A stretch of DNA of 64,000 nt, taken from positions 104,764 to 168,763 of the forward strand of contig JAFQHL010000045.1 of the NCBI GenBank assembly GCA_017397955.1. The letters are read 5' to 3'. The notes beneath the pieces are model-generated. The model made no database searches. It saw only the letters and a list, made by a program, of their open reading frames with translations, and had not been told where the DNA came from. Shown one piece after another: positions 4,023-55,540 of the stretch; positions within the stretch are counted from its first letter, which is position 1; every line of letters begins with the position of its first letter. Source of the stretch: Clostridia bacterium (GTDB lineage Bacteria > Bacillota > Clostridia > Oscillospirales > CAG-382). The translations under genes were made by a program, and so were the position numbers.

Positions 4023-5459
4023 ATGAGAAAGCAAAAAATACTGTTTGTAGCTTCCGAGGCGGTGCCTTATGCATCTTCCGGCGGTTTGGGCGATGTTATA
4101 GGCTCTCTTCCCGCGGCGCTTTGCAGTGCCTCTAAGGGAGAGCTGGACGTTCGCGTAATTATGCCCCTTTACGGAAGTATGAAGGACAGCTATAGGGAAG
4201 AGCTTACTAAGGTATGCGAAACCTATATCAGCCTTTCTTGGCGCAGACAATATTTGGGTATATACAAATTGGAAAAGAACGGCGTTATATATTACTTTTT
4301 GGATAACGAGTATTATTTTAAACGCCCCACCCTTTACGGCAGTTATGATGACGGCGAACGCTATGCCTTCTTCTGCCGCGCCGTAATGGAAGCTCTGCCC
4401 ATTATAGATTTCTTCCCCGACGTGCTTCACGCACACGACTGGCAAAGTGCACTTACGGTTATCTACCTCAAGCGTCGCTATGCCCACGAGGAAGGCTACA
4501 AGGACATAAAAACCGTGTTCACCATCCACAACATTGCTTATCAGGGTGTGTACGGTCACGAGATACTAGGTGACGTATTTGACCTTGGCTATGGTGACAG
4601 GGAAATAGTTGATTATAACGGTGCCATCAACCTTATGAAGGGCGCAATAGTTTGTGCCGATACCGTAAGCACCGTAAGCCCAACTTACGCGTTGGAGATT
4701 CTTTCTCCCCGTTTTTCCAACGGTCTGCACTATGTGCTTGAGCAAAACAAGGGCAAGCTTCGCGGTATACTTAATGGTATAGATATTGACTATTATAATC
4801 CCGAAACGGATACAGAGCTGTTCGCAAATTACTCCTCCAACGACCTTGGCGGCAAAGCAGTTAACAAAAAGGAACTGCAAAAGCTGGTAGGTTTGGAAGA
4901 GAGGGAAGATATCCCCGTTGTGGCAATAATATCCCGTCTTACAGGTCACAAGGGCATAGATATAGTAATGCTTGCTGCAGAGGAGCTGCTAAAGGATAAA
5001 ATACAGCTTGTTGTGCTGGGACAGGGCGACTATACCTACGAAAATTATTTCTGGCATCTTGCAGATAGTTATAAGGGTAAGGTAAGCACTTTGCTTATGT
5101 ACAATAAGGATATGTCTAAAAAGATTTACGCAGGTGCCGATATATTCCTTATGCCTTCTAAGAGTGAGCCCTGCGGTCTTGCTCAGATGATAGCTTCCCG
5201 CTACGGCACAGTGCCTGTTGTAAGGGAAACCGGCGGACTTTACGATTCTATTAAGGACGTAGGCTTTGAAAACGGAAACGGTTTTACCTTTGCCCACTAC
5301 AGCTCCGAGGACCTTATAGGTGCCGTAAGGCGCGCGGTAAATGCATATAACGACAAAGAAAACTATAAATCCCTTGTTAAAAAAGTAATGGAAGTTGATT
5401 TTTCTTGGGACAAATCTGCTCTTGAATACATTAAAATGTATAAAGAGCTATTAGCATAA
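4023..5459 (+). CDS. glgA: glycogen synthase (GT5)
   Basis: KILFVASEAVPYASSGGLGDV (KxGGL motif), HAHDWQSAL, and a C-terminal PSKSEPCGLAQM / GGLYDSI GT-B signature. RBS GGAGG lies upstream. Confidence 0.95.
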   Translation: MRKQKILFVASEAVPYASSGGLGDVIGSLPAALCSASKGELDVRVIMPLYGSMKDSYREELTKVCETYISLSWRRQYLGIYKLEKNGVIYYFLDNEYYFKRPTLYGSYDDGERYAFFCRAVMEALPIIDFFPDVLHAHDWQSALTVIYLKRRYAHEEGYKDIKTVFTIHNIAYQGVYGHEILGDVFDLGYGDREIVDYNGAINLMKGAIVCADTVSTVSPTYALEILSPRFSNGLHYVLEQNKGKLRGILNGIDIDYYNPETDTELFANYSSNDLGGKAVNKKELQKLVGLEEREDIPVVAIISRLTGHKGIDIVMLAAEELLKDKIQLVVLGQGDYTYENYFWHLADSYKGKVSTLLMYNKDMSKKIYAGADIFLMPSKSEPCGLAQMIASRYGTVPVVRETGGLYDSIKDVGFENGNGFTFAHYSSEDLIGAVRRAVNAYNDKENYKSLVKKVMEVDFSWDKSALEYIKMYKELLA

Positions 5460-18432: not shown

Positions 18433-18607
18433 AGTACCATCTCCAATTCTAATTTTTATCGCTTTGATAAGTGCATGTCTTTAGTGATGTCAGCAAAGTC
18501 CTGCCCATGCATGTTCAGTGTATCATATCTCTTTTCAAATGTCAATTTTTTTTAAGGAATATAATGCCGTTTTTGTATAGTCTAAAATAAAGATCGTTCT
18601 TTACCCT

Positions 18608-18656
18608 GTTGCGGGAGCAGGAGTCAAACCTACGCCCGTTTGCGGTGCCCGAAAAA
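18608..18656 (-). repeat. displaced tRNA-fMet 3'-end fragment plus 22-nt junction core (att-like remnant)
   Basis: 18608-18634 GTTGCGGGAGCAGGAGTCAAACCTACG matches the last ~27 nt of the tRNA at 21181-21208 with 3 T-loop changes. It is followed by CCCGTTTGCGGTGCCCGAAAAA, the same core seen at 20965 and 19948. Confidence 0.75.
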
Positions 18657-18663
18657 GATGCCG

Positions 18664-19389
18664 TTATCTAGAATAATATTTCCAAAGATTTGCCAAGGAG
18701 TGTTTCGCTTTTCTGATTTTCTCTATTTCGTCGAAAGTATACAAATCGGTGACAGCAGAAGAATAGATTTCAAATTTTTTACAATCCAAATAAAAGCCAT
18801 ACTCTTTTTCACTTATATAAACAATGTTTTGTAGACTGTCTTTTACCAACTCTCCAACGAAGAATTTATAGGCAACGCCACTTTGAGGTTCCCTCATGTA
18901 TCCCAAAAGGAATACCCTGTTTTCTTCGCAATTATATTCAATAGCCTTCAAAACAACATTGTAATCACTATATAGAACTCTCTTCTTCAAAGAAAAATCT
19001 GATGTATCATATACGGAAAGTGCAGTTTTACAACTGTCGATATGTCGTTCTATATTATAAAACTCTGTGCAGTCGGGGGAAAAGCAAAAATTATCATCCT
19101 GCGAACCGTTAACTTTTGAAAAACGGAATTTTTTTATAAGTGTGTAAGATTCAAGCGAATAAACCGCAAGCCTACCTTCCGTTGACTTCACAACAAAAAT
19201 TTTTCCATCAGGTGAAATCATAGGAGAATAAGCATATCTCAAATCCTTGAATTTTGCAAGCTCTTTGCCGTCTTTGTCATATAAATAAACTGTTTGTCCT
19301 GTGCAGCCAACGGAATATTCACCGTTTGAGGTAAAGCCTACAAAGTTTCTCATCTTTACACCGTCATTCATTTGTTTTTTGAAATTCAT
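18664..19389 (-). CDS. hypothetical protein (beta-propeller-like repeats?)
   Basis: 241-aa ORF with recurring G-x-hydrophobic-S/Y-D motifs and no recognisable family. Lies inside the tRNA-flanked cassette. Confidence 0.5.
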   Translation of the reverse strand: MNFKKQMNDGVKMRNFVGFTSNGEYSVGCTGQTVYLYDKDGKELAKFKDLRYAYSPMISPDGKIFVVKSTEGRLAVYSLESYTLIKKFRFSKVNGSQDDNFCFSPDCTEFYNIERHIDSCKTALSVYDTSDFSLKKRVLYSDYNVVLKAIEYNCEENRVFLLGYMREPQSGVAYKFFVGELVKDSLQNIVYISEKEYGFYLDCKKFEIYSSAVTDLYTFDEIEKIRKAKHSLANLWKYYSR

Positions 19390-19441
19390 CGTAATCTCGG
19401 AGTAATTTTGGTTCTTATCAAATCAAGTATGCCATTTCTAA

Positions 19442-19855
19442 TTATCCATATTTTTCGATAGTTTTACGATAGTATTTACGGATCATTTCCGTTGTTTTTT
19501 TATTTTTAGGAATACAAGCTATCTCGTGAAAGGGGATCTTTGTTTTGAAATAAACAATTTCATATTCTCGCCACCACGGAAAGCATTTGTCGCAATGATC
19601 CTCAATATGTTTAATATCTTTCCAAGATAAAAATGTTTTCAAACCGAAGCAATATCTGACGGTAATGCCTTCCGATGAAAAAGTATAGCCGTTTGGCATA
19701 ATTAAAGCATAACCTAGAATTAAAATAATGCAGGTAGATATAATTGCTATAGATATACCTGTTTCTTCGCCCAAAGTCATAAATCCAAGTAGAATCAAAA
19801 CGAAAAACAGCAACACAAAAAATATCCAACGTTTGTTAATAATTGTTTTCTTCAT
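19442..19855 (-). CDS. hypothetical membrane protein (2 TM + soluble tail)
   Basis: 137 aa; N-terminal hydrophobic segments WIFFVLLFFVLILLGF and IAIISTCIILILGYALI. Confidence 0.5.
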   Translation of the reverse strand: MKKTIINKRWIFFVLLFFVLILLGFMTLGEETGISIAIISTCIILILGYALIMPNGYTFSSEGITVRYCFGLKTFLSWKDIKHIEDHCDKCFPWWREYEIVYFKTKIPFHEIACIPKNKKTTEMIRKYYRKTIEKYG

Positions 19856-19947
19856 TTGTTTTCCTTTGCAGTGTTGATTGAAGTTATTATATCAAACTTT
19901 TAACTAAAAATCAATGATATTACTTCCCTTAATTCTTTTCCCTCCGT

Positions 19948-20164
19948 CCGTTTGCGGTGCCCGAAAAAATCTTCGCATTCGTAGGTGCTTGATTTTTTCT
20001 AACGCTGCACCCAAAACTCCTCGTTGTATCCGCCGCAGGCGGCGCTTCGGAGTTTTGACCTCCGAGTTATTCGCCCTTCGGGCTCATAACCCGTCGGTCA
20101 TCGCACCAACCACACTTCAGAACCAAAACGAAAAACCACCCTGTTTGGGTGGTTTTTCGTTTTG
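19948..20164 (+). repeat. structured ~215-bp repeat, copy B (with terminal intrinsic-terminator hairpin)
   Basis: About 90% identical by eye to 20965-21179 over the first ~150 nt. Ends in the AAAAACCACCC-TGTT-TGGGTGGTTTTT hairpin (20131-20157). Confidence 0.8.
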
Positions 20165-20189
20165 AGTAGAGGTGCCGAAAAAGATGCAT

Positions 20190-20702
20190 CTATTTGTTTT
20201 TCTTTTCAAATTTCCGCAACCACTTAAATGCAGTTATAAGCTGGCGATTTATCTCGTTGCAAATTTCAACGGCAGTCTCATCATTGAATTTTTGCACAAG
20301 TCGATATCCCCTAGGGGGTACGAAATTTGCTGCATGTTTTTCGCTTACGTTATGATATATTTTTCCAAAAAAGATAGTGCGTTTAGCATATAAATCTCTA
20401 TAATAGAACCAACCGTCATACATCCCCTCCAGGCGATATCTTTCATTGGTATTCCAAACTGTCAGTTGTTCTATACCCAAGCCATCCCATTCTACATAGT
20501 TTTTATTGGGTGAATCAGGGAAAACACAAGATACCTCAATGGTAAAAGAGCCGCCCCATTTATTTGTTTGAATGCTGATGAGTTCGATGTGATCTGTGAA
20601 CGTTTTGCGAAAATGAGGGTACTTACCCTTAAACCCCTCCTCCACAAGCGGAGCGATAACTAATTTTTTTAGATAAGATTTCATTATTTCATTGTTAGTC
20701 AT
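20190..20702 (-). CDS. DUF4304-like hypothetical protein
   Basis: MTNNEIMKSYLKKLVIAPLVEEGFKGKYPHFRK...WGGSFTIEV resembles the DUF4304 N-terminus. The start is set at the Met after AAGGGGTGAAGAC. Confidence 0.55.
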   Translation of the reverse strand: MTNNEIMKSYLKKLVIAPLVEEGFKGKYPHFRKTFTDHIELISIQTNKWGGSFTIEVSCVFPDSPNKNYVEWDGLGIEQLTVWNTNERYRLEGMYDGWFYYRDLYAKRTIFFGKIYHNVSEKHAANFVPPRGYRLVQKFNDETAVEICNEINRQLITAFKWLRKFEKKNK

Positions 20703-20936
20703 GTCTTCACCCCTTGGCAATCTGTTGACACAATTATACCACCAAATCGCTTACTTTTCAATCTAAAAAAGCTTTTTGCCACGGCAAAAAGCTACATCTG
20801 ATACCTTTTCACTATTCACTATTACTTATTACTTCCAAAAAAATTCCCTTGCAGAGATTAGTGAAGAGTTAAAAGTGAAGAGTGAAGAGTGAAGAGGTAA
20901 AAAAATACCCTCGGAACAAGTCCGAGGGATTTTTCT

Positions 20937-21179
20937 GGTTGCGGGAGCAGGATTTGAACCTACGCCCGTTTGCGGTGCCCGAAAAAATCTTCGCATCCGT
21001 GGGTGCTTGATTTTTTCGACCGCGGCACCCAAAACTCCTCGCTGTATCCGCCGCAGGCGGCGCCTCGGAGTTTTGACCTCCGAGTTATTCGCCCTTCGGG
21101 CTCATAACCCGTCGGTCGTAGGTCACCAAACTTATAAATCAAAACGAAAAAACCACCCTGTAGGGGTGGTTTTTCATTT
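20937..21179 (+). repeat. 28-nt exact copy of the tRNA-fMet 3' end followed by structured repeat copy A
   Basis: 20937-20964 is identical to 21181-21208. 20965-21179 holds the core CCCGTTTGCGGTGCCCGAAAAA, long helices, an anticodon-arm look-alike (21096-21123) and a terminator hairpin (21147-21171). Confidence 0.85.
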
Positions 21180-21256
<77 letters not shown>

Positions 21257-21305: not shown

Positions 21306-21394
21306 TGGTGCCGGAAACCGGGCTTGAACCGGTACGAGATTTGAGTCTCACGGGATTTTAAGTCCCGGGCGTCTGCCAATTCCGCCACTCCGGC
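21306..21394 (-). tRNA. tRNA-Leu (anticodon UAA), long variable arm, CCA encoded
   Basis: The reverse complement reads GCCGGAGTGGCGGAATTGGCAGACGCCCGGGACTTAAAATCCCGTGAGACTCAAATCTCGTACCGGTTCAAGCCCGGTTTCCGGCACCA. Anticodon stem CGGGA/TCCCG with loop CTTAAAA. Confidence 0.93.
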
Positions 21395-34085: not shown

Positions 34086-35450
34086 TTATCTCTCATCACG
34101 ATCATCTTTCTTTTTCCTTCCTCTGATCCAACTCGGTGTAGGAACAGTTTGCTTATTAGGTTCTTGCTTTTCAATATTCGCAGGCTGTTCACCAAGCCGC
34201 TTGGCAACTGCATTTTTGCTTGCGCGGAAAAAGGCATCTTCGCAATAGCCGTAGATATCGGATATGCGCTTCTTCGCCGTTTCTTCTTTCTGCGGACGGA
34301 TGCCCATACGCTTCTCGTTTAGCTTTTCTTGGTCAAGGTCTGCCGCTTTTGCTTGCAGTGCGCGGTAGCTCTGCATCTGCTTCTGAATAGCGTTCTCGTC
34401 GGGATAGCCGTTGAGACGGTCATATTCAAGAGCAAGCATATTCACGCGCACTTCCTCCATTTCGTCGGCAATGCGGTCAACAATGGCAAATATGCTCTTG
34501 ACGAGATACTTGATAGCCTCCATAATATTCCGCAAGAAGCTGTTGTCCTTCCGTATCTGCCGGTTGATCTCACGGCGCTCGGATATAAAGCCCTTGCGTT
34601 CCATTGCGATGGCAATAACGCCTTCGTGAATGGTCGGTTGTTCGATCTGCCCCCGATCTTTATGACTTCGGTGGTCGATGCGCTCTTCAAGCTCACATCC
34701 CTCAAGCTCGCGGTTGACGTAACGCGCCCACATCTTTCTCCAATACAAAATCTGTTCTTCGCTGTTCCATTGCTCGGAGATAGGGTTCTGTCTGCCGTAC
34801 TTACTGCTCTTGGGATATTTGTTCACACGCTCCAAGCCTTCCGCTTTTGATGGCGGGAGGTATTCTTTTTTCTTGCCGATCTTGTAAAGGTATTGTTTCT
34901 CCCAACCGTCCTTTTGTGCTTGTAAAAACTCCGCCGCCGTAAAGCCACGCTCCTCTCCGTTACGAACACAGAGATATTCCTTTTCGGTCTTGTGCTGCCA
35001 AGTACCGTCCTTATTCAGCGGTCGCACCGTCAGCATAATATGCGCGTGAGGATTATGACCATCGGTATCGTGATAACAGACGTGAGCGCACATACCTTTG
35101 GCGACGCACTCCTTTTCAACGAAGTATTGTAGTAAGAACTCATTGGTTTCTTGTGACAACTCTTTCGGGAGGGCAACGATCAACTCCCGCGCCAAGCGGC
35201 TGTCCTTGGATTTCTCACTTGCTTCAACGGCGTTCCATAACACACTTCTGTCTGCCCATTCCTTTGGAGCGTTCTCGGGAAGGAATATCTGCTCCCACAC
35301 AAGACCTCGCTTTCGGGTGTAATCGTGGGTAATGCCGTCGTAATCGTTATAGATACGGGAACAGCTCATATAGGCGGCTGCCGCCACCGCAGAGCGTCCC
35401 GTACCTCTTGTGATGACTTTTGCTTCAAGATGGTATATGGCGATAGGCAA
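34086..35450 (-). CDS. MobA/MobL-family (MOBQ) relaxase
   Basis: MPIAIYHLEAKVITRGTGRSAVAAAAYMS (catalytic Tyr region) and HNPHAHIMLTVRP (HxH metal motif). Confidence 0.9.
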   Translation of the reverse strand: MPIAIYHLEAKVITRGTGRSAVAAAAYMSCSRIYNDYDGITHDYTRKRGLVWEQIFLPENAPKEWADRSVLWNAVEASEKSKDSRLARELIVALPKELSQETNEFLLQYFVEKECVAKGMCAHVCYHDTDGHNPHAHIMLTVRPLNKDGTWQHKTEKEYLCVRNGEERGFTAAEFLQAQKDGWEKQYLYKIGKKKEYLPPSKAEGLERVNKYPKSSKYGRQNPISEQWNSEEQILYWRKMWARYVNRELEGCELEERIDHRSHKDRGQIEQPTIHEGVIAIAMERKGFISERREINRQIRKDNSFLRNIMEAIKYLVKSIFAIVDRIADEMEEVRVNMLALEYDRLNGYPDENAIQKQMQSYRALQAKAADLDQEKLNEKRMGIRPQKEETAKKRISDIYGYCEDAFFRASKNAVAKRLGEQPANIEKQEPNKQTVPTPSWIRGRKKKDDRDER

Positions 35451-35768
35451 TCACCTCTTTTCAGCGCGATAGGATTTCTGTCTGCAACCATTAGAGCAAT
35501 ACTGCGCGTCGGTGCGCTTGGAAGAAAAGATCTTTCCGCAGACCTTGCAGATATGCTCCGAGTGATGCGCTAACTTTCTTTCCTCTGTCCGTTTGCGCTC
35601 GGCTTCGGCACAACAAGCATCACTGCAATATTTACGGAAATTACAGATCGTGTAATATTCCTTGCCGCATTCAAGGCAGACGTGCTTGCGGACGGTGTAC
35701 CACTTCTTGTCCTCATACCTTGCCCTCAAAAAATCTTGGTTCTCATATTCCCACTGTGCATTTGACAT
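35451..35768 (-). CDS. cysteine-rich double zinc-ribbon protein (relaxase-coupled)
   Basis: Two C-x2-C-G...(K/Q)YCS-x2-C modules. The stop abuts the mobA ATG. The start is set at MSNAQWEY after AAGGAG. Paralog of 38112-38522. Confidence 0.65.
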   Translation of the reverse strand: MSNAQWEYENQDFLRARYEDKKWYTVRKHVCLECGKEYYTICNFRKYCSDACCAEAERKRTEERKLAHHSEHICKVCGKIFSSKRTDAQYCSNGCRQKSYRAEKR

Positions 35769-36256: not shown

Positions 36257-36583
36257 TCAAAAGGATTTCAAAAATCCCAAAAGGACTTGATCATCTACGT
36301 TTTCTTCCTCATCCATACTGGCAGGAGAGACGGGAGTGGCATACTGTAATGCCGAAAGTATTCTTTCAACAAAAGCATCCTCTTTCTCCCGTGTCTCAAA
36401 ATACGGATCGTTTTCAAGCCTTGCCTTGCGCTCATAAAAATCATTGACCGCCCGAGACACAAGCGCAGCGTATGAGCTGTATTTCGAACGGTCACGGTTT
36501 TGAAGATAATCGTAGGCTTTTCTTTCTTCCTCGTTGGCAAGATCAAAACGTAGGCAAAGCGGCTTTATATCTTGCTTTGCCAT
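36257..36583 (-). CDS. putative ParR-like partition adaptor
   Basis: The 108-aa gene is translationally coupled to parM-like (TGATG overlap), in the position of parR in parMRC loci. No motif-level support. Confidence 0.4.
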   Translation of the reverse strand: MAKQDIKPLCLRFDLANEEERKAYDYLQNRDRSKYSSYAALVSRAVNDFYERKARLENDPYFETREKEDAFVERILSALQYATPVSPASMDEEENVDDQVLLGFLKSF

Positions 36584-37521
36584 CAGAGCTTACCGCCGTT
36601 CTGCTTCATTTTCAGTTTGGTCAAGAACTCATATCCCTTTGCCGTGGCGCAAATATCATCCTTTATAACCACTCGATTGGGATCGTACTGACCGAAATTC
36701 TTTATCAGACAACCACCGCCGCCTACAACGTAGAGCTTCATAAGGTCGGGGTTATATTCGTGCTCTCGGAGCTTGCGGAAGATGCCCTCAACATATTCAA
36801 TGGCAACGCTGCGAATGACCATCAAATATTTCTCGGCAATATCAAGAGTGCCAAAGCGAAGGACACCCTCGATGATCGTATCATCGGGAACAGAACCAAA
36901 GCGGCGCATAAGCTGTTCGCGGATGTTCAGTACACATTGATGTGTGCCGTATTTCTCGGTAAACATCTTTTCGACTATCGGGCGGTGATCGTTGATATAC
37001 ATTACGTTCATTGTTCCGTTGCCGATGTCACAGATCATATTCACACCGCGAAACTCGCCCATTTGGTTGGTAACTGCCGCGAAGCCCTGCGGTAAAATAT
37101 CAGCACCTACGAAGTCCACGTGAAAAGTTCTTTTCTTAAAAACAAAATCCACGTGAGGCTCTCGGAGAAGATAAGCCTTGAACTCGTCCTTTTGCTCACT
37201 TACCCAAGTCAGAGGAAGTCCCGCAGCAAGATAGACCGACGCGCTCTCCAAGTTCCTTGCATAAAGCTCACGGGCAACAGCGGCAAGGGTGAGGATATAA
37301 TAGTCATCGTCGTTCTGCTTCTCGGGAATAAACTCCTTGTGTCCCTCCCCGATGATATAATACCGCCCGTTATAGACAAGCATATTGCTTGTAAAGGTCG
37401 GCTCGGTGTCATAGGCTTTCACGCTTGTGCGGAAACAAGCGGATGCAGTTTTGATGTTCCCATAGCCGTGGTCGATGCCGATCACGATGGGCGTCCCGGA
37501 TTGATTTTTGTTTACGTTCAT
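36583..37521 (-). CDS. ParM/StbA-family actin-like segregation ATPase
   Basis: Actin-fold motifs are present: IVIGIDHGYGNIKT (phosphate 1), MICDIGNGTMNV (phosphate 2), LYVVGGGG (adenosine). Confidence 0.8.
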   Translation of the reverse strand: MNVNKNQSGTPIVIGIDHGYGNIKTASACFRTSVKAYDTEPTFTSNMLVYNGRYYIIGEGHKEFIPEKQNDDDYYILTLAAVARELYARNLESASVYLAAGLPLTWVSEQKDEFKAYLLREPHVDFVFKKRTFHVDFVGADILPQGFAAVTNQMGEFRGVNMICDIGNGTMNVMYINDHRPIVEKMFTEKYGTHQCVLNIREQLMRRFGSVPDDTIIEGVLRFGTLDIAEKYLMVIRSVAIEYVEGIFRKLREHEYNPDLMKLYVVGGGGCLIKNFGQYDPNRVVIKDDICATAKGYEFLTKLKMKQNGGKL

Positions 37522-38111: not shown

Positions 38112-38522
38112 CTATGATCTCTCACGAGTCGCAATCCTTTTCTGTTCCGTTACGGATAAGCAAGTGTTCTTTGTGACTACTTGGTTATCCGTAACACTTT
38201 TACGGTATGCTTTCTGTCTGCAAGCGTTGGAGCAATAAACACCGTCCGATCTTGTCGGCGTAAAGACCTTGCCGCAGACCTTACAAACGCGGTCTTTCCG
38301 CGCTTCACGCGCCCGCTCTGATAATTCCTTGCGATAGCCGCGATTTCCACACAGATGGTAAAGACAATACTTTTTTGTACTGATCTGCGTGTAAAACTCT
38401 CTGCCGCAGCCCTTGCAGATGATCTTTCTGACCGCTAAATTCGGCTTTTTACCCGATATTTTCTCTTGATACCAAGCCTTCAGCGTCTCTTGGTTTTGGT
38501 ATTCCCATTCGCTGTTTCCCAT
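38112..38522 (-). CDS. cysteine-rich double zinc-ribbon protein (paralog of 35451-35768)
   Basis: MGNSEWEYQNQETLKAWY..., CKGCGREF...KKYC and CKVCGKVF...VYCSNACRQKAYR. Same architecture as the relaxase-coupled copy. Confidence 0.65.
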   Translation of the reverse strand: MGNSEWEYQNQETLKAWYQEKISGKKPNLAVRKIICKGCGREFYTQISTKKYCLYHLCGNRGYRKELSERAREARKDRVCKVCGKVFTPTRSDGVYCSNACRQKAYRKSVTDNQVVTKNTCLSVTEQKRIATRERS

Positions 38523-38545: not shown

Positions 38546-38585
38546 AAGCGACCTGCCTTTTACAGCAGATCGCTTGATTTGTTTA
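38546..38585 (-). repeat. 40-bp perfect direct repeat (copy 1) containing a terminator hairpin
   Basis: AAGCGACCTGCCTTTTACAGCAGATCGCTTGATTTGTTTA is identical to 40406-40445. The hairpin AAGCGA.CTGC/GCAG.TCGCTT is followed by T-rich sequence on the minus strand and sits directly after the AbiEii stop. Confidence 0.85.
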
Positions 38586-39548
38586 TTATCTTGCATCTTT
38601 ATCTTTATTTTCTCGCGTTTTCCACAATGCCATCGGATGCGCCTTTAGACGTTCTAATGCTTCTCCCTCAAAAATAATCTCGGGACAATACTGTCCTTTT
38701 TTGAAGTTCTCCAAGAAGGAGATATCTTTATCCGTAAGATAAAGGTTTTTATCGAGAAAAGCCTTAACAGCATCCTTAGCGGCATTCAGCTCAAAGGCAT
38801 CGCGATCACGAATCACGGGTTTTAGATCGGTCATAATCTTATGCGGTGTAATCGTTTCCATCGCCCGATAATCAATCTTGGTTATCGGGGTGTCTGTCGC
38901 CACAGCCAAGTAGAACACCACGCTTTGGCGATACAAGGCAAGTTCGTCCTCGGAAAAGAGATCGTGACTTACCATATAATTCATATCGTAAAGATCTCTC
39001 GCCGCGCCACGAGTGAGAAGCGCCACCGTCTTTGTGGCGTAAATCTCAATCGGAGATACAGTGTTGACATCAAAGCCTCCGTCTACAATATCGTTTGGCA
39101 TTTTGATCTTCTGTGTGGGCAGAACGTGGGAACGAAGCGAATAATTGATCTCGATCTTGATATTATCCTTCATTCCTCCGGCGTTGGTATATTCAAACAC
39201 ATAGGAATAAAGACTGTGATAGGTTTTGGATTTCGGGCTCAGCGTATAACCCGAAGCGGTCATATACTTTAAGAGCTTATCTCCTATGGTTGCTCTGAAG
39301 GACATCATTTCCGTTCTTCCTACGTTAGCGCAAAAATCAAGGTCGATATCAACGGACAGACGAGGAAGATTGAAGAACAATAGATTGATGGCAGTACCGC
39401 CCTTTAGAGCAAGTTTGTTTCTAAAAAGCTCACTGCTATCGAAAAATTTCAATATTTCGCAAAGTCGTAACACCTTTTCAAAGGTATCTCTTACGACCGA
39501 AAGTTCTTTTGCCTTACGCGCAAGCTCGGTTTTATCATATATCGGCAT
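38586..39548 (-). CDS. AbiEii/AbiGii-family nucleotidyltransferase toxin (DUF1814)
   Basis: 320 aa; LALKGGTAINL...SVDIDL is the N-terminal NTase pattern. Overlaps the upstream AbiEi-like gene by 14 nt. Confidence 0.8.
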   Translation of the reverse strand: MPIYDKTELARKAKELSVVRDTFEKVLRLCEILKFFDSSELFRNKLALKGGTAINLLFFNLPRLSVDIDLDFCANVGRTEMMSFRATIGDKLLKYMTASGYTLSPKSKTYHSLYSYVFEYTNAGGMKDNIKIEINYSLRSHVLPTQKIKMPNDIVDGGFDVNTVSPIEIYATKTVALLTRGAARDLYDMNYMVSHDLFSEDELALYRQSVVFYLAVATDTPITKIDYRAMETITPHKIMTDLKPVIRDRDAFELNAAKDAVKAFLDKNLYLTDKDISFLENFKKGQYCPEIIFEGEALERLKAHPMALWKTRENKDKDAR

Positions 39549-40405: not shown

Positions 40406-40445
40406 AAGCGACCTGCCTTTTACAGCAGATCGCTTGATTTGTTTA
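40406..40445 (-). repeat. 40-bp perfect direct repeat (copy 2), terminator after recombinase gene
   Basis: Identical to 38546-38585; lies 3' of the serine recombinase stop (40497). Confidence 0.85.
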
Positions 40446-40496
40446 ATATTTACTTGATAATAGCGGTATTTTCAATACCTTTGGGCAATACTTAAA

Positions 40497-42389
40497 TTAA
40501 GCGCTCGGTACTTGTCTGACCTCAAAGGGCAGCGTCGGGGGATTATCCTTCATATCCTCCGCGAAGCTCTCGATGATATCCGCTTGGGTTTGAGCAAACT
40601 GTGCGGCTTTCTTCGCCTTTTCCTCCGCGCGTATTCTCTTACGACGGGCAAGCTCCTTGTCTCTGCGTTTGCGGTACAGTTCCTTCCAATACCGATCCTT
40701 CTCCATCTGCTCCAATTCCTCGGGTGTAGGTTCGGGCGCGGGAATACTGATATTGCCGACAAAGTTCAAATAGATCTCGACCTCTTGGATACGCTCTCCT
40801 GTGGAACGGTCGGGGGCGTGAACTACGATCTTGTCGATAAACTCGTTTATCATCGGCTTTGTAAGCTCGGAGAAGTCTGTGTACTTGGCGGCAAGAGACA
40901 GAAAAGCGTCGATGTTAACGCTGTCTTTCTCAAACTGTTCTACCGCATTTTCCGCTTCGGATATGGATATTTTGAGTTCCTTCTGCTCCTGCTCATAGCC
41001 GCTTGAGAGCATATCGAACTTTTCCTCGGATATTTTACCGACAGCGTAGGATTCGTAAAGACGTTTATAGAGAACGTCCAATTCCTCATAGCGCCGCTTG
41101 TCCTTGTTCAGCTTACGCTTTAATTCCTTTGCGGTGTTGTCTTGCTGTACCGCCGACGCTTCACGAACACGGGCAATAAAGTCATCCTTGTTGGCAATGG
41201 CGTATTGGCTGACCGTTCTGACGGTAAATAATACGATCTCTCTTAAAGAATTGGTACTGATATGATGTGCAAAGCATCCCTTGCCCTTATTCTTCTTGGA
41301 TAACTTATAAGTTGAGCAATTATACGCATCCGTTCCCGAATGCTTCGTTCCAATCGAATCCGTAAAAGGACGCGAGCGTTGGTTATACATCTTCTCACCG
41401 CAATCGGCGCAATAGACAAGTCCCGTAAATGGATTGGATTCTTCAATCGTATCACAGCGTCGGGGCGTTCCCAAGAGCTTTTGGCACAACTGCCAAGTTT
41501 CAAGGTCAATGATGGGTTCTTGAGTCCCTTCAAATACTGCCCACTTTTCGGGTGGGTTCTGAATACTTTTCTTATCCTTGTAGGATTTGCTTGTGGTACG
41601 GAAGTTGACAGTATATCCAAGATAGTCGGGCTTGGTCAGTATATGCTTGACCATCGTGCCACTCCACTTATATGGGTCTAACACATCAAGGCGATTCTTA
41701 TATACACCATTACTCCGCTTGGCTTGATAATAGCCGGGTGTTTCGATCTTATCCGCTTGCAGTTGCTTGGCGATCATCTGTATGCCTTTGCCCTCAATGC
41801 AAAGCCGATAGATGCGTCTGACGACCTCTGCCGCTTCTTCATCCACAAGCCAATGATGCTTGTCCTCGGGGTCTTTCTTGTACCCATAGGGCGCGTGAGA
41901 GGAAATATGCTTTCCCGAATTGCCGATGACCTGCTTGGTGGCTCTGATCTTGCGGCTGCAATCTCGCAAGTACCATTCATTCATCACGTTCAAAAAAGGT
42001 GCGAACTCGCTACTTCCTTGATTATCACTATCCACTCCGTTGGCAATGGCGATAAAGTGGATGTCCTTCTGCCCGAAATAGATCTCGGTGTAATAACCGA
42101 CTTCAAGGTAATTACGACCGATACGGCTCATATCCTTCGTGATGACCATACCGACCTTACCTGCTTCAATGTCCTCGATCAGACGTTTCCAATCGGGTCT
42201 GTCGAAGCTGCCGCCGCTGTAACCGTCATCGGTGTAGTGGACGATATTGGTGTAGCCGTTCTGTTCGCAATAGGTTTCGAGCATTTTCTTTTGATTCACG
42301 ATGGAATTGCTATCGCCAAGCTGCTCGTCGTCTCTCGATAGTCTTTCATAAAGGGCAGTAATCAATCCGTCAATCTGCTTGTTGTTCAT
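40497..42389 (-). CDS. large serine recombinase (TnpX-like)
   Basis: N-terminal resolvase domain (ALYERLSRDDEQ...SNSIVNQKKML...GYSGGSFDRPDW...VITKDMSRIGRN), recombinase domain, Cys-rich zinc ribbon (CADCGEKMY...YNCSTY), and a long coiled-coil tail; 630 aa. Confidence 0.92.
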   Translation of the reverse strand: MNNKQIDGLITALYERLSRDDEQLGDSNSIVNQKKMLETYCEQNGYTNIVHYTDDGYSGGSFDRPDWKRLIEDIEAGKVGMVITKDMSRIGRNYLEVGYYTEIYFGQKDIHFIAIANGVDSDNQGSSEFAPFLNVMNEWYLRDCSRKIRATKQVIGNSGKHISSHAPYGYKKDPEDKHHWLVDEEAAEVVRRIYRLCIEGKGIQMIAKQLQADKIETPGYYQAKRSNGVYKNRLDVLDPYKWSGTMVKHILTKPDYLGYTVNFRTTSKSYKDKKSIQNPPEKWAVFEGTQEPIIDLETWQLCQKLLGTPRRCDTIEESNPFTGLVYCADCGEKMYNQRSRPFTDSIGTKHSGTDAYNCSTYKLSKKNKGKGCFAHHISTNSLREIVLFTVRTVSQYAIANKDDFIARVREASAVQQDNTAKELKRKLNKDKRRYEELDVLYKRLYESYAVGKISEEKFDMLSSGYEQEQKELKISISEAENAVEQFEKDSVNIDAFLSLAAKYTDFSELTKPMINEFIDKIVVHAPDRSTGERIQEVEIYLNFVGNISIPAPEPTPEELEQMEKDRYWKELYRKRRDKELARRKRIRAEEKAKKAAQFAQTQADIIESFAEDMKDNPPTLPFEVRQVPSA

Positions 42390-42402
42390 TCTTGAACTCC
42401 TT

Positions 42403-42621
42403 TCAAGCAGGACGGCTCATTTGTGGTGACTCTATTATACCACACTTTTCGCCGTTTGTCGATACCTCATTTTTAATCATTCGTAAAATTTTATCCTCCA
42501 TCGTTTCTTTTGCGGTCTCGCTGAAGAAAACCTTCAGCTTGTAGGTGGTGCTCCCGATGCGGCGGGTGATGACGTTTTCCTTCAAATTGTTATTCTTTTC
42601 GTTCAATAGGCTTTCCTCCAA
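42403..42621 (-). CDS. TnpW-like transposon-encoded small protein
   Basis: RRIGSTTYKLKVFFSETAKETMEDKILRMIKNE is the pattern of TnpW-family proteins; sits directly upstream of the recombinase. Confidence 0.65.
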   Translation of the reverse strand: MEESLLNEKNNNLKENVITRRIGSTTYKLKVFFSETAKETMEDKILRMIKNEVSTNGEKCGIIESPQMSRPA

Positions 42622-43029
42622 AATTCAAATTTAGATTGGTCGCCGATCTGAGCGCGTCTGTCAGCCTCCTTACGCTTCGTTATTTGCGTCTGTGATCGAC
42701 TTATGTAAAGCCCTGCAACCGCATTTGCAGGGGAAATATCCACGTGGACACGATGTCCACTCGGGTTATATAGCGCGTTACGGATAATCTGTCTGTGTGG
42801 TGTGGGTCATTTTGACCCATACCACGCTCTCCGATTAAACGTAACAGCATACTTTTTATGTATCCGTGCGCTGTTCTCCTATCCCATTCTCTGCGACGTA
42901 TTCCGTATTGGCGTGCTCGGTCAAAAGACTGTCTTGGCACACATCGCCTACGGTAATATCCACACGGCGTTATTCGATTTTCAAGGAACGTAAATGTATA
43001 AGGCTAAATTGTGGGGGCAGTGTTCAAGT

Positions 43030-44250
43030 TACCTCTCACTATTTAGTTGGGAACTTTCTCGGCAAAAATTAGCCATCGACCAAGAAATAAATATCCCTCT
43101 AAGTGGTAGGCAGCGAGAATGGCTAAAACCCGCCACAAAATCAAAAAAATATTTTATGACCTCATCTAATAGGACAAAAATACGCGAATTGTATAGTGTC
43201 TGTAAAAATTCCTCTCTATTAGGTAGCCAGCGAAATTGGTAAAAACCCGACACGATTTCAAAATATCCCCCTAAGTAGTAGGCAGCGAAAAGGGCAAAAA
43301 GACAACCATAGCCTCAAAAAACTCTCCTTCACTTGACAACGGACATTTTTTCATTGAAATCGGGGGTAGGTAAACTCACCACTCTCAAATTTTCTCTCCT
43401 ACTATTCGTTGCTGACTTTTTGGGAAAATTTTGCGTGCCTTTCTAATATTCGTTACTGACTTTTTTGCAAAATAATAGCCTGAGAACATCAAAAAAATCC
43501 CCCTCTAAGTGGTAGCCGGCGAAACGACCCAAAAAGGGCAAGATTTTCAGAAAAAATTTTACTCCTCAATAGGTAGGCAGCGAGAACGGCTAAAACCCGA
43601 CATTTCCTCTAATATTTAGTTGGGAACTTTTTTGTCGTTTGAGCCAAACTTTTTTGAAAATAAAAGTCCCTCTAAGTGGTAGCCAGCGAGAAGCCTTGAT
43701 TTTTGCACTTTTGTGTAAATTTGTCCCTCTAATTGGTAGGCAGCGAAATCGCAGAAAAAGGGCAAGATTCTGAAAAAATATTTATCCCCTCAATAGGTAG
43801 CCGGCGAAAACGCGTAAAACCCGCCACTTTTTTCGTTTCTATTTTATTACCGTATCGAAAACGGCAAAATTGTCCTACGAAAACAAGCTCTCAATTGGTA
43901 GCCATCGAAAACCCCAATTTTATACCCCTCACTATTACGTTGCTTACTTTTTTTGAATTTGGCCGAAAATTTTTTCAAAAAAATTGAAGAAAATTTTTGC
44001 TCCCTTAAGTAGTAGGCGATAAGAATGGAGAAAACTCGACACTTCCTCTAATATTTAGTTGGGAACTTTTTTCACGTTTGGACGAAAAATACTTTGAAAA
44101 ATATGTCCCTCTAATTGGTAGGCAGCGAGAAGCCGCGATTTTTGCACTTTTCAGAAAAATTGTCCTCTACTTTTTAGTTGGGAACTTTTTTGAGAAATTT
44201 TGCGTGATACTTACAAATAATTTATCCTTCTAAGTAGTAGGCAGCGAAAA
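43030..44250 (+). repeat. non-coding array of ~20 degenerate 25-29-nt direct repeats (two motif classes) with recurring inter-repeat segments
   Basis: Class A CCCTCTAAGTGGTAGSCAGCGARAA starts at 43095, 43211, 43267, 43499, 43562, 43667, 43724, 43785, 43887, 44001, 44106 and 44225. Class B CCTCTAATATTTAGTTGGGAACTTTTTT starts at 43032, 43394, 43438, 43606, 43925, 44045 and 44164. Mean period is ~60 bp. No credible ORF. Confidence 0.9.
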
Positions 44251-44295
44251 GGGCAAAAATATAAGGCTGTTCGTAAAAAACAGCCTAAAAATTGA

Positions 44296-44330
44296 AAACG
44301 GCGGTGGAATTTTGTTTTCCACCGCCGTTT
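44296..44330 (-). terminator. rho-independent terminator after the 44343-45705 operon
   Basis: AAACGGCGGTGGAA-TTTTGT-TTCCACCGCCGTTT 14-bp stem. A second hairpin AGGCTGTT-N8-AACAGCCT lies at 44264-44287. Confidence 0.8.
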
Positions 44331-44342
44331 AAGGTCATTTAT

Positions 44343-53782: not shown

Positions 53783-55171
53783 TTACTCCTCCTCAAACAC
53801 AATCTTGTTCAGGGCGTTGATATATGCTCTTATACTTGCCGCAACAATATCTGCTGAAATACCGTTGCCTGAATAAAGCTTGCCGTTGTTTCTGAGCCTT
53901 ACCAAAGCAGAGCCCAAAGCCTCTTTGCCTTCGGTTACGGATTGCACCTGAAAATCGTCCAGCTCATAGTGATAACCTATGCACTGCTCAATGGCACGGA
54001 AGGCAGAGTCAATAGGACCGTCCCCTGTGCTTACACCGCAAATAATGTCGTCGTTGAATCTTAGTGTTACCTGTGACATAGAGCTTGTAAGGTTACTGCT
54101 GTTTGTGGTGTAGCTTTCAAGGTGATAGGTAGAGGGCGCCTGCATAGCGGCGCTTGCAATAAGCGCGTCAAGCTCCTTTGCGCCTACGGCATCCTTCTTT
54201 TGACATACCTGTATAAGCGCCTTGTGCACTTTGCCGCAATCGGCCTCGGAAAGGTCGTAACCCAAAACACTTGCCGCCTGCGCTACTTGTGCAATGGTAC
54301 TGTCACAGTCAAGCAAAATCTTTTTCTTTTCGCTTACGGTGCTTTCGCTTTCGTAAACCTCGTGGTTTATTTTTGCAAGCATATCGTCAATACTAGCATG
54401 TATTTTTGTATTATTAAGCCCTGTTCCTATACCCAGTCGGTCAGAACAAACTTTAAGGGCATCTGCAATCTCACCCGTCAAAAGAGCATCGCCGCCCGCC
54501 ATAGAGCATTTAACACCGTCTGCGCCGTTGGCAACAGCGGCTATTGCAGAAGCTACCGCCATATTTATCTTATCGGAAACCTGCACGTATACGGGCACGT
54601 TTACAGCCGCTTTTACCGCTTGGGTCAGCGCGACAATCTCTTCTGGCAGAGATATTCCTGCATCATCACACAGTGTAATAAGGGTTGCGCCGTTAGCTAC
54701 CGCTTCTTTGGCTGCATTAACTACAAAGTCTGCTTCTGCGCGTGTAGCATCAAGGGCAGAAAACTCAACGTCCTCAGTAAGCCCTTTTGCAGCCTTTACA
54801 AGCTCTGCAATCTTTGCCAACATTTTGTCCGCCTTAATGTGGTAATTGTACTCCATTTGAACGGTAGAAACAGGAAGCTCTATCTGTAAACGGGGGCTTT
54901 TTGCCGATTTAATGCACTCCCATGCATCAACTACAGAGGCAACCGTAGAGCCTACGGGGATGGCAACCGTGGCGTTTTGCACATTCTGCGCTACAGTTTT
55001 ATATACAATGGAATCCTCACGCAGACTCTTAATGGGTGCAAGCTCCACGCTGTCGGCGCCGATAAGGTCGGCACAAACGGCAATAGCGGTTTTTTCGCGG
55101 AAAAGCAGGGCAACCTGGCGGTCTGCGGAAAGCTTTTTAAGTGTAATGTCGGATACATTGATTTTTCTCAT
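53783..55171 (-). CDS. LeuA/HMGL-like protein with degenerate catalytic motifs and retained LeuA C-terminal regulatory (dimerisation) domain
   Basis: Colinear by eye with 2-isopropylmalate synthase, but DTTLRDGEQ is replaced by SDITLKKLSADRQ and HxHNDxGxAxAN by VQVSDKINMAVAS. The C-terminal TGDGPIDSAFRAIE...VTEGKEALG...GISADIVAASIRAYINALNK resembles the LeuA_dimer domain. Confidence 0.65.
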   Translation of the reverse strand: MRKINVSDITLKKLSADRQVALLFREKTAIAVCADLIGADSVELAPIKSLREDSIVYKTVAQNVQNATVAIPVGSTVASVVDAWECIKSAKSPRLQIELPVSTVQMEYNYHIKADKMLAKIAELVKAAKGLTEDVEFSALDATRAEADFVVNAAKEAVANGATLITLCDDAGISLPEEIVALTQAVKAAVNVPVYVQVSDKINMAVASAIAAVANGADGVKCSMAGGDALLTGEIADALKVCSDRLGIGTGLNNTKIHASIDDMLAKINHEVYESESTVSEKKKILLDCDSTIAQVAQAASVLGYDLSEADCGKVHKALIQVCQKKDAVGAKELDALIASAAMQAPSTYHLESYTTNSSNLTSSMSQVTLRFNDDIICGVSTGDGPIDSAFRAIEQCIGYHYELDDFQVQSVTEGKEALGSALVRLRNNGKLYSGNGISADIVAASIRAYINALNKIVFEEE

Positions 55172-55214: not shown

Positions 55215-55540
55215 CAACAAAAAAACGTCCCCGTCCCCTTGTCGAATCAAAGAGACGAAAACGTTAAACACAATTTAACTTTCCGCGGTACCACTCTTCT
55301 TCATCCAGTAAAGGATGCACTCAGATGCCAACACATCTTTACTCTGTAACGGGAGCTACCCGTCTGTCATTACACCTAAAACAGGTTCACAACAGCCGCT
55401 CCGCGGTGAGTTCAGCAAGCTTTTCCCAATGTCTCACACCGACCGACATCTCTCTCAAGGCGAAAACACCTGCGTACTATTCCGCATCACTGCGTTTACT
55501 AATTGCTTGGAATTTTATCACAAGAAAATTTCTTTGTCAA
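55215..55540 (-). promoter_or_regulatory. promoter plus T-box leader, specifier CUC (leucine)
   Basis: All on the minus strand. Promoter: TTGACA (55540-55535), 17 nt, TAAAAT (55517-55512). Stem I has GATGCGGAAT-AGTA, AGAGAG and GGTGTGAG. The specifier loop is GAA-CTC-A (55413-55407), and CCGTTA is the F-box. The T-box sequence GAGTGGTACCGCGG lies around 55284-55297. A terminator (55265-55224) is followed by a U-tract. Confidence 0.88.

Follow-up and report, generated by a model that had tools for sequence, protein, structure and literature searches.

Within a 64,000-nucleotide (nt) stretch of a Clostridia bacterium genome from the Oscillospirales (contig JAFQHL010000045.1; the whole stretch is called the window here), two copies of a ~215-nt repeat are found near the gene of the initiator tRNA-fMet. 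The repeat belongs to what is apparently a large, widespread, strongly structured and undescribed family of small non-coding mobile DNA modules in gut Clostridia, and full-text literature searches gave no description of the element. We consider the chances even that each ~215-nt copy is an inserted mobile DNA module that codes for nothing, is non-autonomous, is comparable to REPINs and attC sites, and is moved in trans.

The two copies, B and A, form a direct repeat (19941-20099 and 20959-21117) with 94% identity over 159 nt, and a terminal-hairpin block (20131-20164 and 21148-21181) is shared between them at 91% identity; two copies of a ~215-nt repeat had been described in a first-pass annotation made from the letters alone, and the comparison bears this out. 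Each whole copy measures ~215 nt and holds a conserved core of 115-125 nt, the unit, which consists of two hairpins termed H1 and H2. A third, truncated copy at 18603-18657, missed by the first-pass annotation, comprises a degenerate tRNA 3' fragment and then CCCGTTTGCGGTGCCCGAAAAA. This 22-nt sequence, named box L, is the same in all three copies of the window, even though the tRNA fragment adjoining the third copy has diverged.

H1 is built of two highly conserved inverted arms flanking a variable spacer of 15-40 nt, which usually has a small hairpin of its own. Its 5' arm is box L, (C)CGTTTGCGGTGCCCGAAAAAA, and its 3' arm reads TTTTTTCG-ACCGC-GGCAC, where a near-invariant 5-nt bulge (at least 95% conserved) splits two paired boxes. 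H2 is a long hairpin whose outer stem differs completely between copies yet pairs (CAAAACTCC/GGAGTTTTG in the window; CAAACCGCCCTGC/GCAGGGCGGTTTG, TAAATCAGC/GCTGATTTA and others in relatives); it also has a conserved 5-nt bulge, TKNAT, a single bulged C, and an apical stem of 5 bp, closed by a 3-nt loop, in which covariation gives CCGCC/GGCGG, CTGCC/GGCAG, CTCGC/GCGAG and CGTCC/GGACG. The unit begins with (G/C)(T/C)TTGCGG and ends with the 3' strand of H2, with or without CCC. Compared with shuffled sequence, the fold of copy A has z = -5.85 on the + strand and -5.79 on the - strand when treated as RNA, and the core has z = -4.1 and -3.9, respectively, when treated as DNA.

The extent of the family was established from related loci carrying box L or units, drawn from genome and metagenome scans and numbered with the letter L. 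The genome scan, using the exact 19 nt of box L and one genome per species, gave 60 loci, of which ~55 lie in Oscillospiraceae, Acutalibacteraceae, Faecousia and other Clostridia metagenome-assembled genomes (MAGs) from ruminant and other guts; up to five contigs of a single MAG were matched by this 19-mer, and many matches lay at contig ends. The metagenome scan, with a pattern demanding both arms of H1, gave at least 120 loci from human gut and rumen. A covariance model, R1, built from 40 copies, recognised 44 strong full-length units in the genome loci and at least 98 in the metagenome loci, or ~140 further units in total, their sources being the genomes of ~45 Oscillospirales species and metagenomes of human gut and rumen, and in the window it found only the two copies already known.

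Covariation across these many units from outside the locus is strong. In two independent alignments, 98.3% and 97.8% of cells hold standard pairs, with 11 and 10 pairs, respectively, changed on both sides; the covariation score was reached by none of 500 shuffles, and controls with a slid partner pair only at 36-69%. The basal pairs are constant, in part as a result of the search patterns that fixed them, and so carry no evidence either way, and the outer stem of H2 is not in register across the aligned copies. All the helices proposed in the first-pass annotation are present in the minimum-free-energy fold of copy A and are backed by compensatory changes across ~130 distinct relatives. The switch-like pairing CTCGGAG/CTCCGAG that it had also proposed is, on the contrary, a product of the junction between H2 and an antisense tRNA fragment, and is absent in close relatives (L018) and in the rest of the family.

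A scan of the window with Rfam 15 at the gathering threshold reported a T-box and two tRNAs only, with no family over the repeat; at E <= 10 the repeat region gave only chance-level terminator-like matches, and the units of 17 related loci gave no match, in agreement with the first-pass statement that this is not a recognised Rfam family. A phage, plasmid or viral origin was rejected, given that blastn of copy B returned a single 30-nt chance match in a phage collection and none in a plasmid collection, and that exact-pattern scans of viral contigs returned no match.

The layout of the region around the copies, from left to right, is as follows.

18603..18634, + strand: degenerate antisense copy of the tRNA-fMet 3' end, an 80% match to the 35-nt repeat family D9; this is the leftmost displaced att-type fragment and the left edge of the island array, and the chromosomal flank common with L028 stops just upstream.
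18635..18663, + strand: box L stub, CCCGTTTGCGGTGCCCGAAAAA, then GATGC, then cargo, without the H1 3' arm or H2.
18664..19855, - strand: cargo of cassette 1, small genes of 241 aa and 137 aa with weak Pfam matches; promoter at 19914-19886 (-).
19946..20069, + strand: unit B, with box L, H1 and H2, slightly decayed (R1 106.6 bits, E = 6e-27).
20070..20164, + strand: variable 3' part of copy B, made up of H3 (antisense and sense look-alike of tRNA-fMet) and, after it, the terminal hairpin T1 (20131-20164).
20165..20189, + strand: GAGTAGAGGTGCCGAAAAAGATGC, a degenerate stub of box L directly against the stop codon of the cargo gene that follows.
20190..20935, - strand: cassette 2, with a DUF4304 gene at 20190-20720 (Pfam DUF4304, E = 1e-9), a promoter at 20761-20733, a promoter module and a bidirectional terminator at 20908-20928.
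20936..20964, + strand: antisense copy, exact over 29 nt, of the 3' end of tRNA-fMet (positions 76 to 47), a displaced att-type direct repeat (0 mismatches, 0 expected by chance).
20964..21087, + strand: unit A, with box L, H1 with its ACCGC bulge, and H2 (R1 115.6 bits, E = 2e-29).
21076..21123, + strand: H3 of copy A, with antisense tRNA-fMet positions 47 to 35 (21076-21088), a turn, and a sense look-alike of positions 29 to 53 (21096-21123).
21148..21174, both strands: T1, a bidirectional intrinsic terminator with a 12-bp stem, common to copy A and the tRNA operon.
21180..21256, - strand: intact initiator tRNA-fMet, the integration hotspot (ARAGORN; RF00005 62.6 bits; C1:A72 mismatch and three G-C anticodon-stem pairs).
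21306-21394, - strand: tRNA-Leu.

Copy A is bounded on the left by the exact tRNA-fMet 3'-end copy and on the right by the intact initiator tRNA-fMet. Copy B looks slightly decayed, since it scores lower with the covariance model and is changed at two positions that all other family members keep (TTTTTTCTAACGC versus TTTTTTCGACCGC). As for the earlier proposal that each copy ends in a bidirectional terminator hairpin, it is correct for copy A on both strands; in copy B the hairpin is present but failed a simple scan.

The evidence that the unit moves comes from its clean presence and absence. Occupied and empty sites, which are copies of another composite repeat, could be compared in two sets (L136 with L177 and L116; L069 with L166 and L113), and they differ by one clean block of 113-118 nt, which opens with (C)CGCCTTGCGG and closes where the 3' strand of H2 does, with a duplication of at most 1 nt and with termini that are unrelated rather than inverted repeats. 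Moreover, units stand in tandem with a shared CCC joint in L032 (at a 113-nt period), L009, L014, L029 and L043, and other modules are nested within H2 in L008, L022, L025 and L049. The idea that the H2 outer stem acts as a guide pairing with the target flank, hinted at by L069, was dropped because the alignment puts the stem wholly inside the insert. The unit is also seen as one module in mosaics of other hairpin repeats, in L008, L011, L021, L040 and L056 (one Acutalibacteraceae MAG) and in many human-gut contigs (L068, L074, L145, L177); the partner repeats (CCCTCAGTCA/TGACTGAGGG, GGGAGCC...GGCTCCC, CCCCTCCCCCGTGGCGGGGGAGGGG) are multi-copy and uncharacterised.

If the unit is a mobile module of the kind proposed, an enzyme encoded elsewhere in the genome would recognise the conserved arms, likeliest in folded single-stranded or cruciform DNA, and would insert, delete or recombine the module as DNA. 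Insertion would be clean, with neither target duplication nor terminal inverted repeats. Units also stand in tandem, and some have genes in the H1 spacer. In the window, the units would have landed in displaced tRNA-fMet fragments left beside the tRNA by island integration. The first-pass suggestion of a recombination scaffold associated with the islands is nearer to the data than its suggestion of a structured RNA; as a whole, its interpretation is borne out in part.

The search for a partner enzyme was centred on the neighbourhood of the units. All-against-all clustering of neighbour open reading frames (ORFs) gave no family in more than 7 of 55 loci, and none in more than 6 of the 175 among the loci listed; Pfam scans of the neighbour ORFs of these 175 gave no integrase or transposase, and no RAYT (Y1 HUH) gene was seen within windows of up to ~14 kb around units. 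A recurrent neighbour protein of 643 aa is an ABC-F ATPase, a housekeeping protein. Among the 30 larger ORFs scanned of the 57 in the window, the sole recombinase is a large serine recombinase that lies 19 kb off, inside another element. Group I and II introns, retrons, bridge RNA and omega RNA were rejected as candidates for the unit itself on account of wrong size, no reverse transcriptase, recombinase or TnpB nearby, and no Rfam match.

The tRNA context of the unit bears on several of the competing explanations. The look-alike of tRNA-fMet in inverted orientation, reported from the first reading of the sequence, is real: 21091-21123 and 21202-21234 are the two arms of an inverted repeat of 33 nt, complementary at 88%, over the anticodon-to-T-stem region of the tRNA, and the 16-mer TCGGGCTCATAACCCG occurs three times where 0.01 occurrences are expected. 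Antisense tRNA-fMet reads across the unit in the window, from positions 76 to 47, then the unit, then 47 to 35, and past the antisense piece comes a 3-nt turn followed by the sense look-alike running back from 29 to 53. Some 12 other species have a related arrangement: a displaced fragment, covering 76 to 35, is followed by a leader of 11 nt and the unit, after which come an inverted pseudo-tRNA in decay, a terminator and the intact tRNA. The anticodon stem of the look-alike is broken in the copies of these ~12 species, and among relatives position 31 is mutated and the stem broken in most. ARAGORN and Rfam RF00005 find only the true tRNAs, the look-alike spanning positions 29-53 only and having no cloverleaf.

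Further, the H3 part, 3' of H2, varies and resembles whatever tRNA adjoins: tRNA-fMet in many loci adjoining tRNA-fMet, tRNA-Pro in L030, L037 and L042, the T-arm of tRNA-Ser in L012 and L031, and tRNA-Glu in L059. Since the look-alike copies whichever tRNA is next to it (fMet, Pro, Ser or Glu), it is att-site or pseudo-tRNA debris, a displaced antisense fragment together with an inverted pseudo-copy, rather than a working RNA part or a piece of the core. The description of the repeat as a tRNA-derived structured RNA does not hold: a tRNA origin applies to the variable 3' part only and not to the conserved H1-H2 core.

Nor do copies always sit beside tRNA-fMet, a point that the first-pass annotation had proposed to check. 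A tRNA of any kind lies within 600 nt of only 28 of the 167 units among the loci listed, and tRNA-fMet of 13; of those 28 units, 25 are on the strand opposite the tRNA. The unit is found at tRNAs for fMet, Pro, Ser, Glu, Asn and Leu and at secA, and mostly away from any tRNA or direct repeat, so that its association with tRNAs is an enrichment and no rule. Its association with island junctions, proposed from the window, was confirmed. In L054 (~4040-4085), the unit-adjoining tRNA-fMet is a 3' half ending in the anticodon loop, after which an island opens with an HATPase_c_3 protein, so that the unit-bearing mini-insert also occurs at the far (attL) end of a large island.

A distinct pattern is seen in ~7 loci, where the unit lies between two 42-66-nt copies of a gene end (secA, tRNA-Glu, tRNA-Ser, tRNA-Pro). 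Copy 1 belongs to the intact gene and stops within 3 nt of the gene boundary in L017 and L059, while overrunning it by 13-35 nt in L016 and L042; a non-conserved leader of ~39 nt comes after it, and copy 2 begins 0-5 nt past the unit. The two secA copies of L017 differ only at synonymous positions, as would be expected if one came from another genome. The pattern looks like Campbell-type or site-specific integration of a ~215-nt circle made up of unit, leader and gene-end copy.

One alternative is that the unit is part of the attachment site of small integrative elements, like integrase-less cis-mobilizable elements (CIMEs), and serves as an arm or accessory site beside the crossover of a tyrosine integrase that targets the ends of tRNA and other genes. 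Copy A is flanked by a direct repeat, exact over 29 nt, of the tRNA 3' end, repeats of 42-48 nt reaching the anticodon loop flank the same arrangement in the ~12 relatives, the unit sits between two gene-end copies in L017, L059, L016, L042, L031 and L057, and the synonymous differences in L017 fit as well. However, ~80% of units have neither a flanking direct repeat nor a nearby tRNA, the unit faces the crossover by its 3' end in some loci and by its 5' end in others, and one conserved unit combined with at least eight different target genes would call for many integrase specificities. No integrase was seen in any locus examined, and compensatory changes in hairpins would be needless for protein-binding arms in double-stranded DNA. 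This alternative is, in our view, unlikely.

Further support for the preferred reading, an inserted module moved in trans, comes from the gene cassettes of the region. Box L or a degenerate form of it stands ahead of every cargo block in the window (18635, 19948, ~20170 and 20965), each block has its own - strand promoter, and its last gene has a stop codon that lies directly against ...GCATCTTTTTCGG(G)CACC. The segment 18616-19968 is 96.5% identical to L018 (451-1805), the MAG of which is a different species, against ~78% for the adjoining tRNA-Leu/fMet region, which suggests a recent horizontal transfer of cassette 1, and the block of high identity stops exactly at the 3' end of box L (19968). 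At this joint, L018 has an extra element that starts with box L and an RtcB gene and goes on with a degenerate form of the H1 3' arm, a variant H2 and ATTGCCC, in effect a 'giant unit' with a gene held in the H1 spacer, in tandem ahead of an ordinary unit. In L028 the same cargo is bounded by box L variants. Stubs of the type seen at 18635..18663 recur in L018 (470-495 and 1787-1811), L047 and L028, and the motif of the degenerate stub GAGTAGAGGTGCCGAAAAAGATGC also comes after T1 in these three loci. Cargo in relatives includes DUF4304, SocA/Panacea antitoxin, MerR/DUF1836, Band 7 and HTH-methyltransferase proteins. The cassette ends are heterogeneous, in that the far end of cassette 1 is without an H1 3' arm and in L014 no stub accompanies the same gene. 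Box L marks the joints at which small gene cassettes are gained and lost.

Two observations on the cargo may be added here. An RtcB RNA-ligase gene is unit-bounded cargo beside tRNA-fMet in both L018 (1806-3308) and L028 (6340-7760), and the presence of an RNA-repair/tRNA-ligase gene at a tRNA hotspot may be coincidental. The promoter module of cassette 2 is a conserved segment (20765-20905) with a hairpin, AGCTTTTTGCC..GGCAAAAAGCT, heptamer-like direct repeats CACTATTCACTATTACTTATTAC and then GTGAAGAG repeats in the opposite sense. It recurs upstream of another gene in L014 and of no gene in L047, and may be a regulatory or operator region travelling with cassettes.

Could the array then be an integron-like platform, in which H1 serves as an attC-like folded single-strand site and box L-bounded cassettes are exchanged at tRNA-fMet by a dedicated recombinase other than IntI? 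The two paired boxes of H1, its near-invariant extrahelical bulge and its variable terminal structure would suit such a system, as would the cassettes with promoters of their own that box L delimits in L018, L028, L047 and the window, the contrast between 96.5% and 78% identity around cassette 1, and the typically accessory cargo (RtcB, DUF4304, SocA/Panacea antitoxin, HTH-methyltransferase). On the contrary, the R'' (RYYYAAC) and R' (GTTRRRY) core motifs, which in attC stand at the two ends of an imperfect palindrome of 57-141 nt, are absent from the unit ends on both strands, no IntI tyrosine recombinase was seen among the neighbour ORFs of the 175 loci listed, nor any integrase near any array, most units are solitary and without cargo, and the cassette ends are heterogeneous, as described above. 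Such a platform is therefore given only a small probability.

Least probable of the three alternatives, and in our judgement rather improbable, is a structured non-coding RNA (ncRNA), either a + strand gene for a small RNA, with the shared terminator as its end, or a cis-acting element in read-through transcripts, with the tRNA-like 3' part acting as a decoy or guide. The strong covariation with variable stem sequences, the folding z-scores of about -5.8, the conserved bulges and loops, the terminator at the 3' end in the tRNA-fMet arrangement, and the likeness of the 3' part to the adjoining tRNA in several loci are all features that an ncRNA would have. The expression signals point the other way. 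No promoter-like site was seen on the + strand upstream of either copy, and the good promoters of the region are all on the - strand, namely that of the tRNA operon and one per cassette. Copy A is enclosed by two bidirectional terminators (20908-20928, directly upstream, and 21148-21174), the family shows no conserved sequence upstream of the unit, and the orientation of units relative to the local gene majority is random (31 same, 21 opposite, p = 0.21). The ratio of GU to AC wobbles is 13 to 3 in alignment A5 and 9 to 11 in A6, and a G-U excess favouring the + strand, taken from the first alignment, was accordingly dropped as the larger independent set disagrees. The minimum free energy is slightly better on the - strand; overall the two strands fold equally well, so the fold fits either strand, as DNA palindromes and single-stranded DNA sites typically do. 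Moreover, the tandem and nested arrangements of units, their multiple copies, their presence at some sites and absence from others that are otherwise alike, a look-alike anticodon stem that is degraded in most relatives, and the absence of Rfam matches speak against an RNA function, and the expressed ncRNA put forward in the first-pass annotation is not supported.

Several points weigh against the reading of the repeat as an inserted mobile module. The 'empty' sites are paralogous or orthologous copies of another repeat and not the same locus of a sister strain, so that a precise deletion would be indistinguishable from an insertion; a look-up of same-locus relatives by exact flanking proteins gave two sub-kilobase contigs or none. 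Mobility itself is read from presence and absence and from the arrangement of units. The plain insertion model does not account for the exact adjacency of unit and gene end, nor does it explain the origin of the inverted pseudo-tRNA beside tRNA-fMet, and the conservation of the tRNA-fMet arrangement across many species could mean that it has a function there. The orientation bias typical of single-strand transposons was not seen, with gene orientation, a weak proxy for the replication strand, showing no significant bias (p = 0.21). Finally, a functional RNA would be expected to show equally strong covariation.

Other features of the window deserve a brief description. The segment 33000-44340 has the looks of an integrated mobilizable, plasmid-like element, with genes on the - strand for a MobA/MobL relaxase (34086-35450), a ParM-like actin (36583-37521), an AbiEii toxin (38586-39548) and the large serine recombinase (40497-42389) mentioned above. 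An 83-nt repeat (35467-35549 and 38203-38285), one copy of which precedes the relaxase gene at a short distance on its upstream side, includes GGTGCGCTT and may be its oriT; the idea that the unit is an oriT for this relaxase was set aside, box L having only a GGTGC core in common with this likely oriT near 35.5 kb. A 44-nt repeat with a terminator-like hairpin (AAGCGACCTGCCTTTTACAGCAGATCGCTT...; 38546-38589 and 40406-40449, 98% identical) occurs twice inside the same element. The interval 42400-44340 is ~1.9 kb of non-coding DNA (no ORF of at least 120 aa, no Rfam match) that holds at least 11-14 dispersed copies of TCCCTCTAAGTGGTAGGCAGCGA(G/A)AA at an irregular spacing of 55-234 nt, as well as four copies of TCCTCTAATATTTAGTTGGGAACTTTTTT; these repeats could be replication iterons of the adjoining element or a GGA-rich sponge RNA read on the - strand. 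A T-box leader at 55248-55499 (-; Rfam 125 bits), upstream of a LeuA-like gene (53783-55171), is ordinary.

Should the mobile-module reading be correct, abundant Clostridia of gut and rumen (Oscillospiraceae, Acutalibacteraceae, Faecousia) would carry a widespread structured mobile module that lies outside all annotation resources, breaks assemblies and marks the joints of accessory-cassette exchange beside tRNA-fMet, and that covariation screens could mistake for an ncRNA. The conserved arms would point to an enzyme that recognises hairpin DNA; its identity would explain how small cassettes move in hosts that are hard to culture, and it might add a new site-specific DNA-insertion activity. 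It is tempting, and decidedly speculative, to go further and suppose that the unit is the recognition module of an undescribed recombination system, in which a hairpin-dependent enzyme acting in trans would move tiny modules and cassettes (RtcB, immunity-like, toxin-antitoxin) and place them at gene ends matching a 40-65-nt target copy beside the unit, making an integron-like, homology-addressed platform in gut Clostridia centred on tRNA-fMet; we think it unlikely that this fuller picture is true.

Comparison with known systems places the unit in familiar company. With the REP, REPIN and BIME repeats of proteobacteria, mobilised by RAYT, a Y1 HUH transposase, it shares the character of a short non-coding, intergenic, multi-copy repeat whose enzyme is encoded elsewhere, a hairpin of two conserved inverted arms with a variable spacer (as in H1), and the occurrence in mosaics with other hairpin modules. 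In L007, two full box L copies are inverted relative to each other. However, the unit is larger than a REPIN (115-125 nt), has an obligatory second hairpin with a free stem in H2 and no GTAG-type 5' tetranucleotide, resides in Oscillospirales (Firmicutes), can hold genes in its spacer, and is enriched at tRNA ends, and no RAYT gene was seen in its loci. The likeness to integron attC sites lies in a structure conserved above sequence, with paired boxes, extrahelical bases and variable terminal structure, and in sites that bound accessory-gene cassettes, promoter-bearing or promoterless, in arrays; unlike attC, the unit has arms highly conserved in sequence, is mostly solitary, carries a second hairpin, and has its array at a tRNA gene and not at attI.

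As in tRNA-targeting islands and CIMEs, the inserts lie between directly repeated copies of the tRNA 3' end, several inserts are stacked at one tRNA, no integrase is present and the insert gives the tRNA a new terminator; in the window the exact 29-nt repeat (20936-20964 and 21180-21208) has the intact tRNA at one side. The differences are that the smallest inserts measure only ~215-260 nt, that one core goes with many targets, and that the core is also found far from tRNAs and direct repeats. Non-autonomous derivatives of IS200/IS605 likewise have subterminal hairpins without terminal inverted repeats or target duplication, features found here too, and can insert in tandem after a sequence resembling their own 3' end; in the unit, H1 and H2 are dissimilar, the left flank is loosely CCN and not a fixed 4-5-nt target, no orientation bias was detected with the weak proxy used, and no TnpA gene was seen nearby. 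BOX, RUP and Correia-type repeats and MITEs (transposable elements of the miniature inverted-repeat type) of Gram-positive bacteria and Neisseria are similarly modular, strongly folding intergenic repeats of 100-200 nt able to affect the expression of neighbours, from which the unit is set apart by having neither terminal inverted repeats nor a target-site duplication and no sequence similarity. Overall, the systems nearest in kind to the unit are REPINs, attC sites and derivatives of the IS200/IS605 type, from each of which it departs in defining respects.

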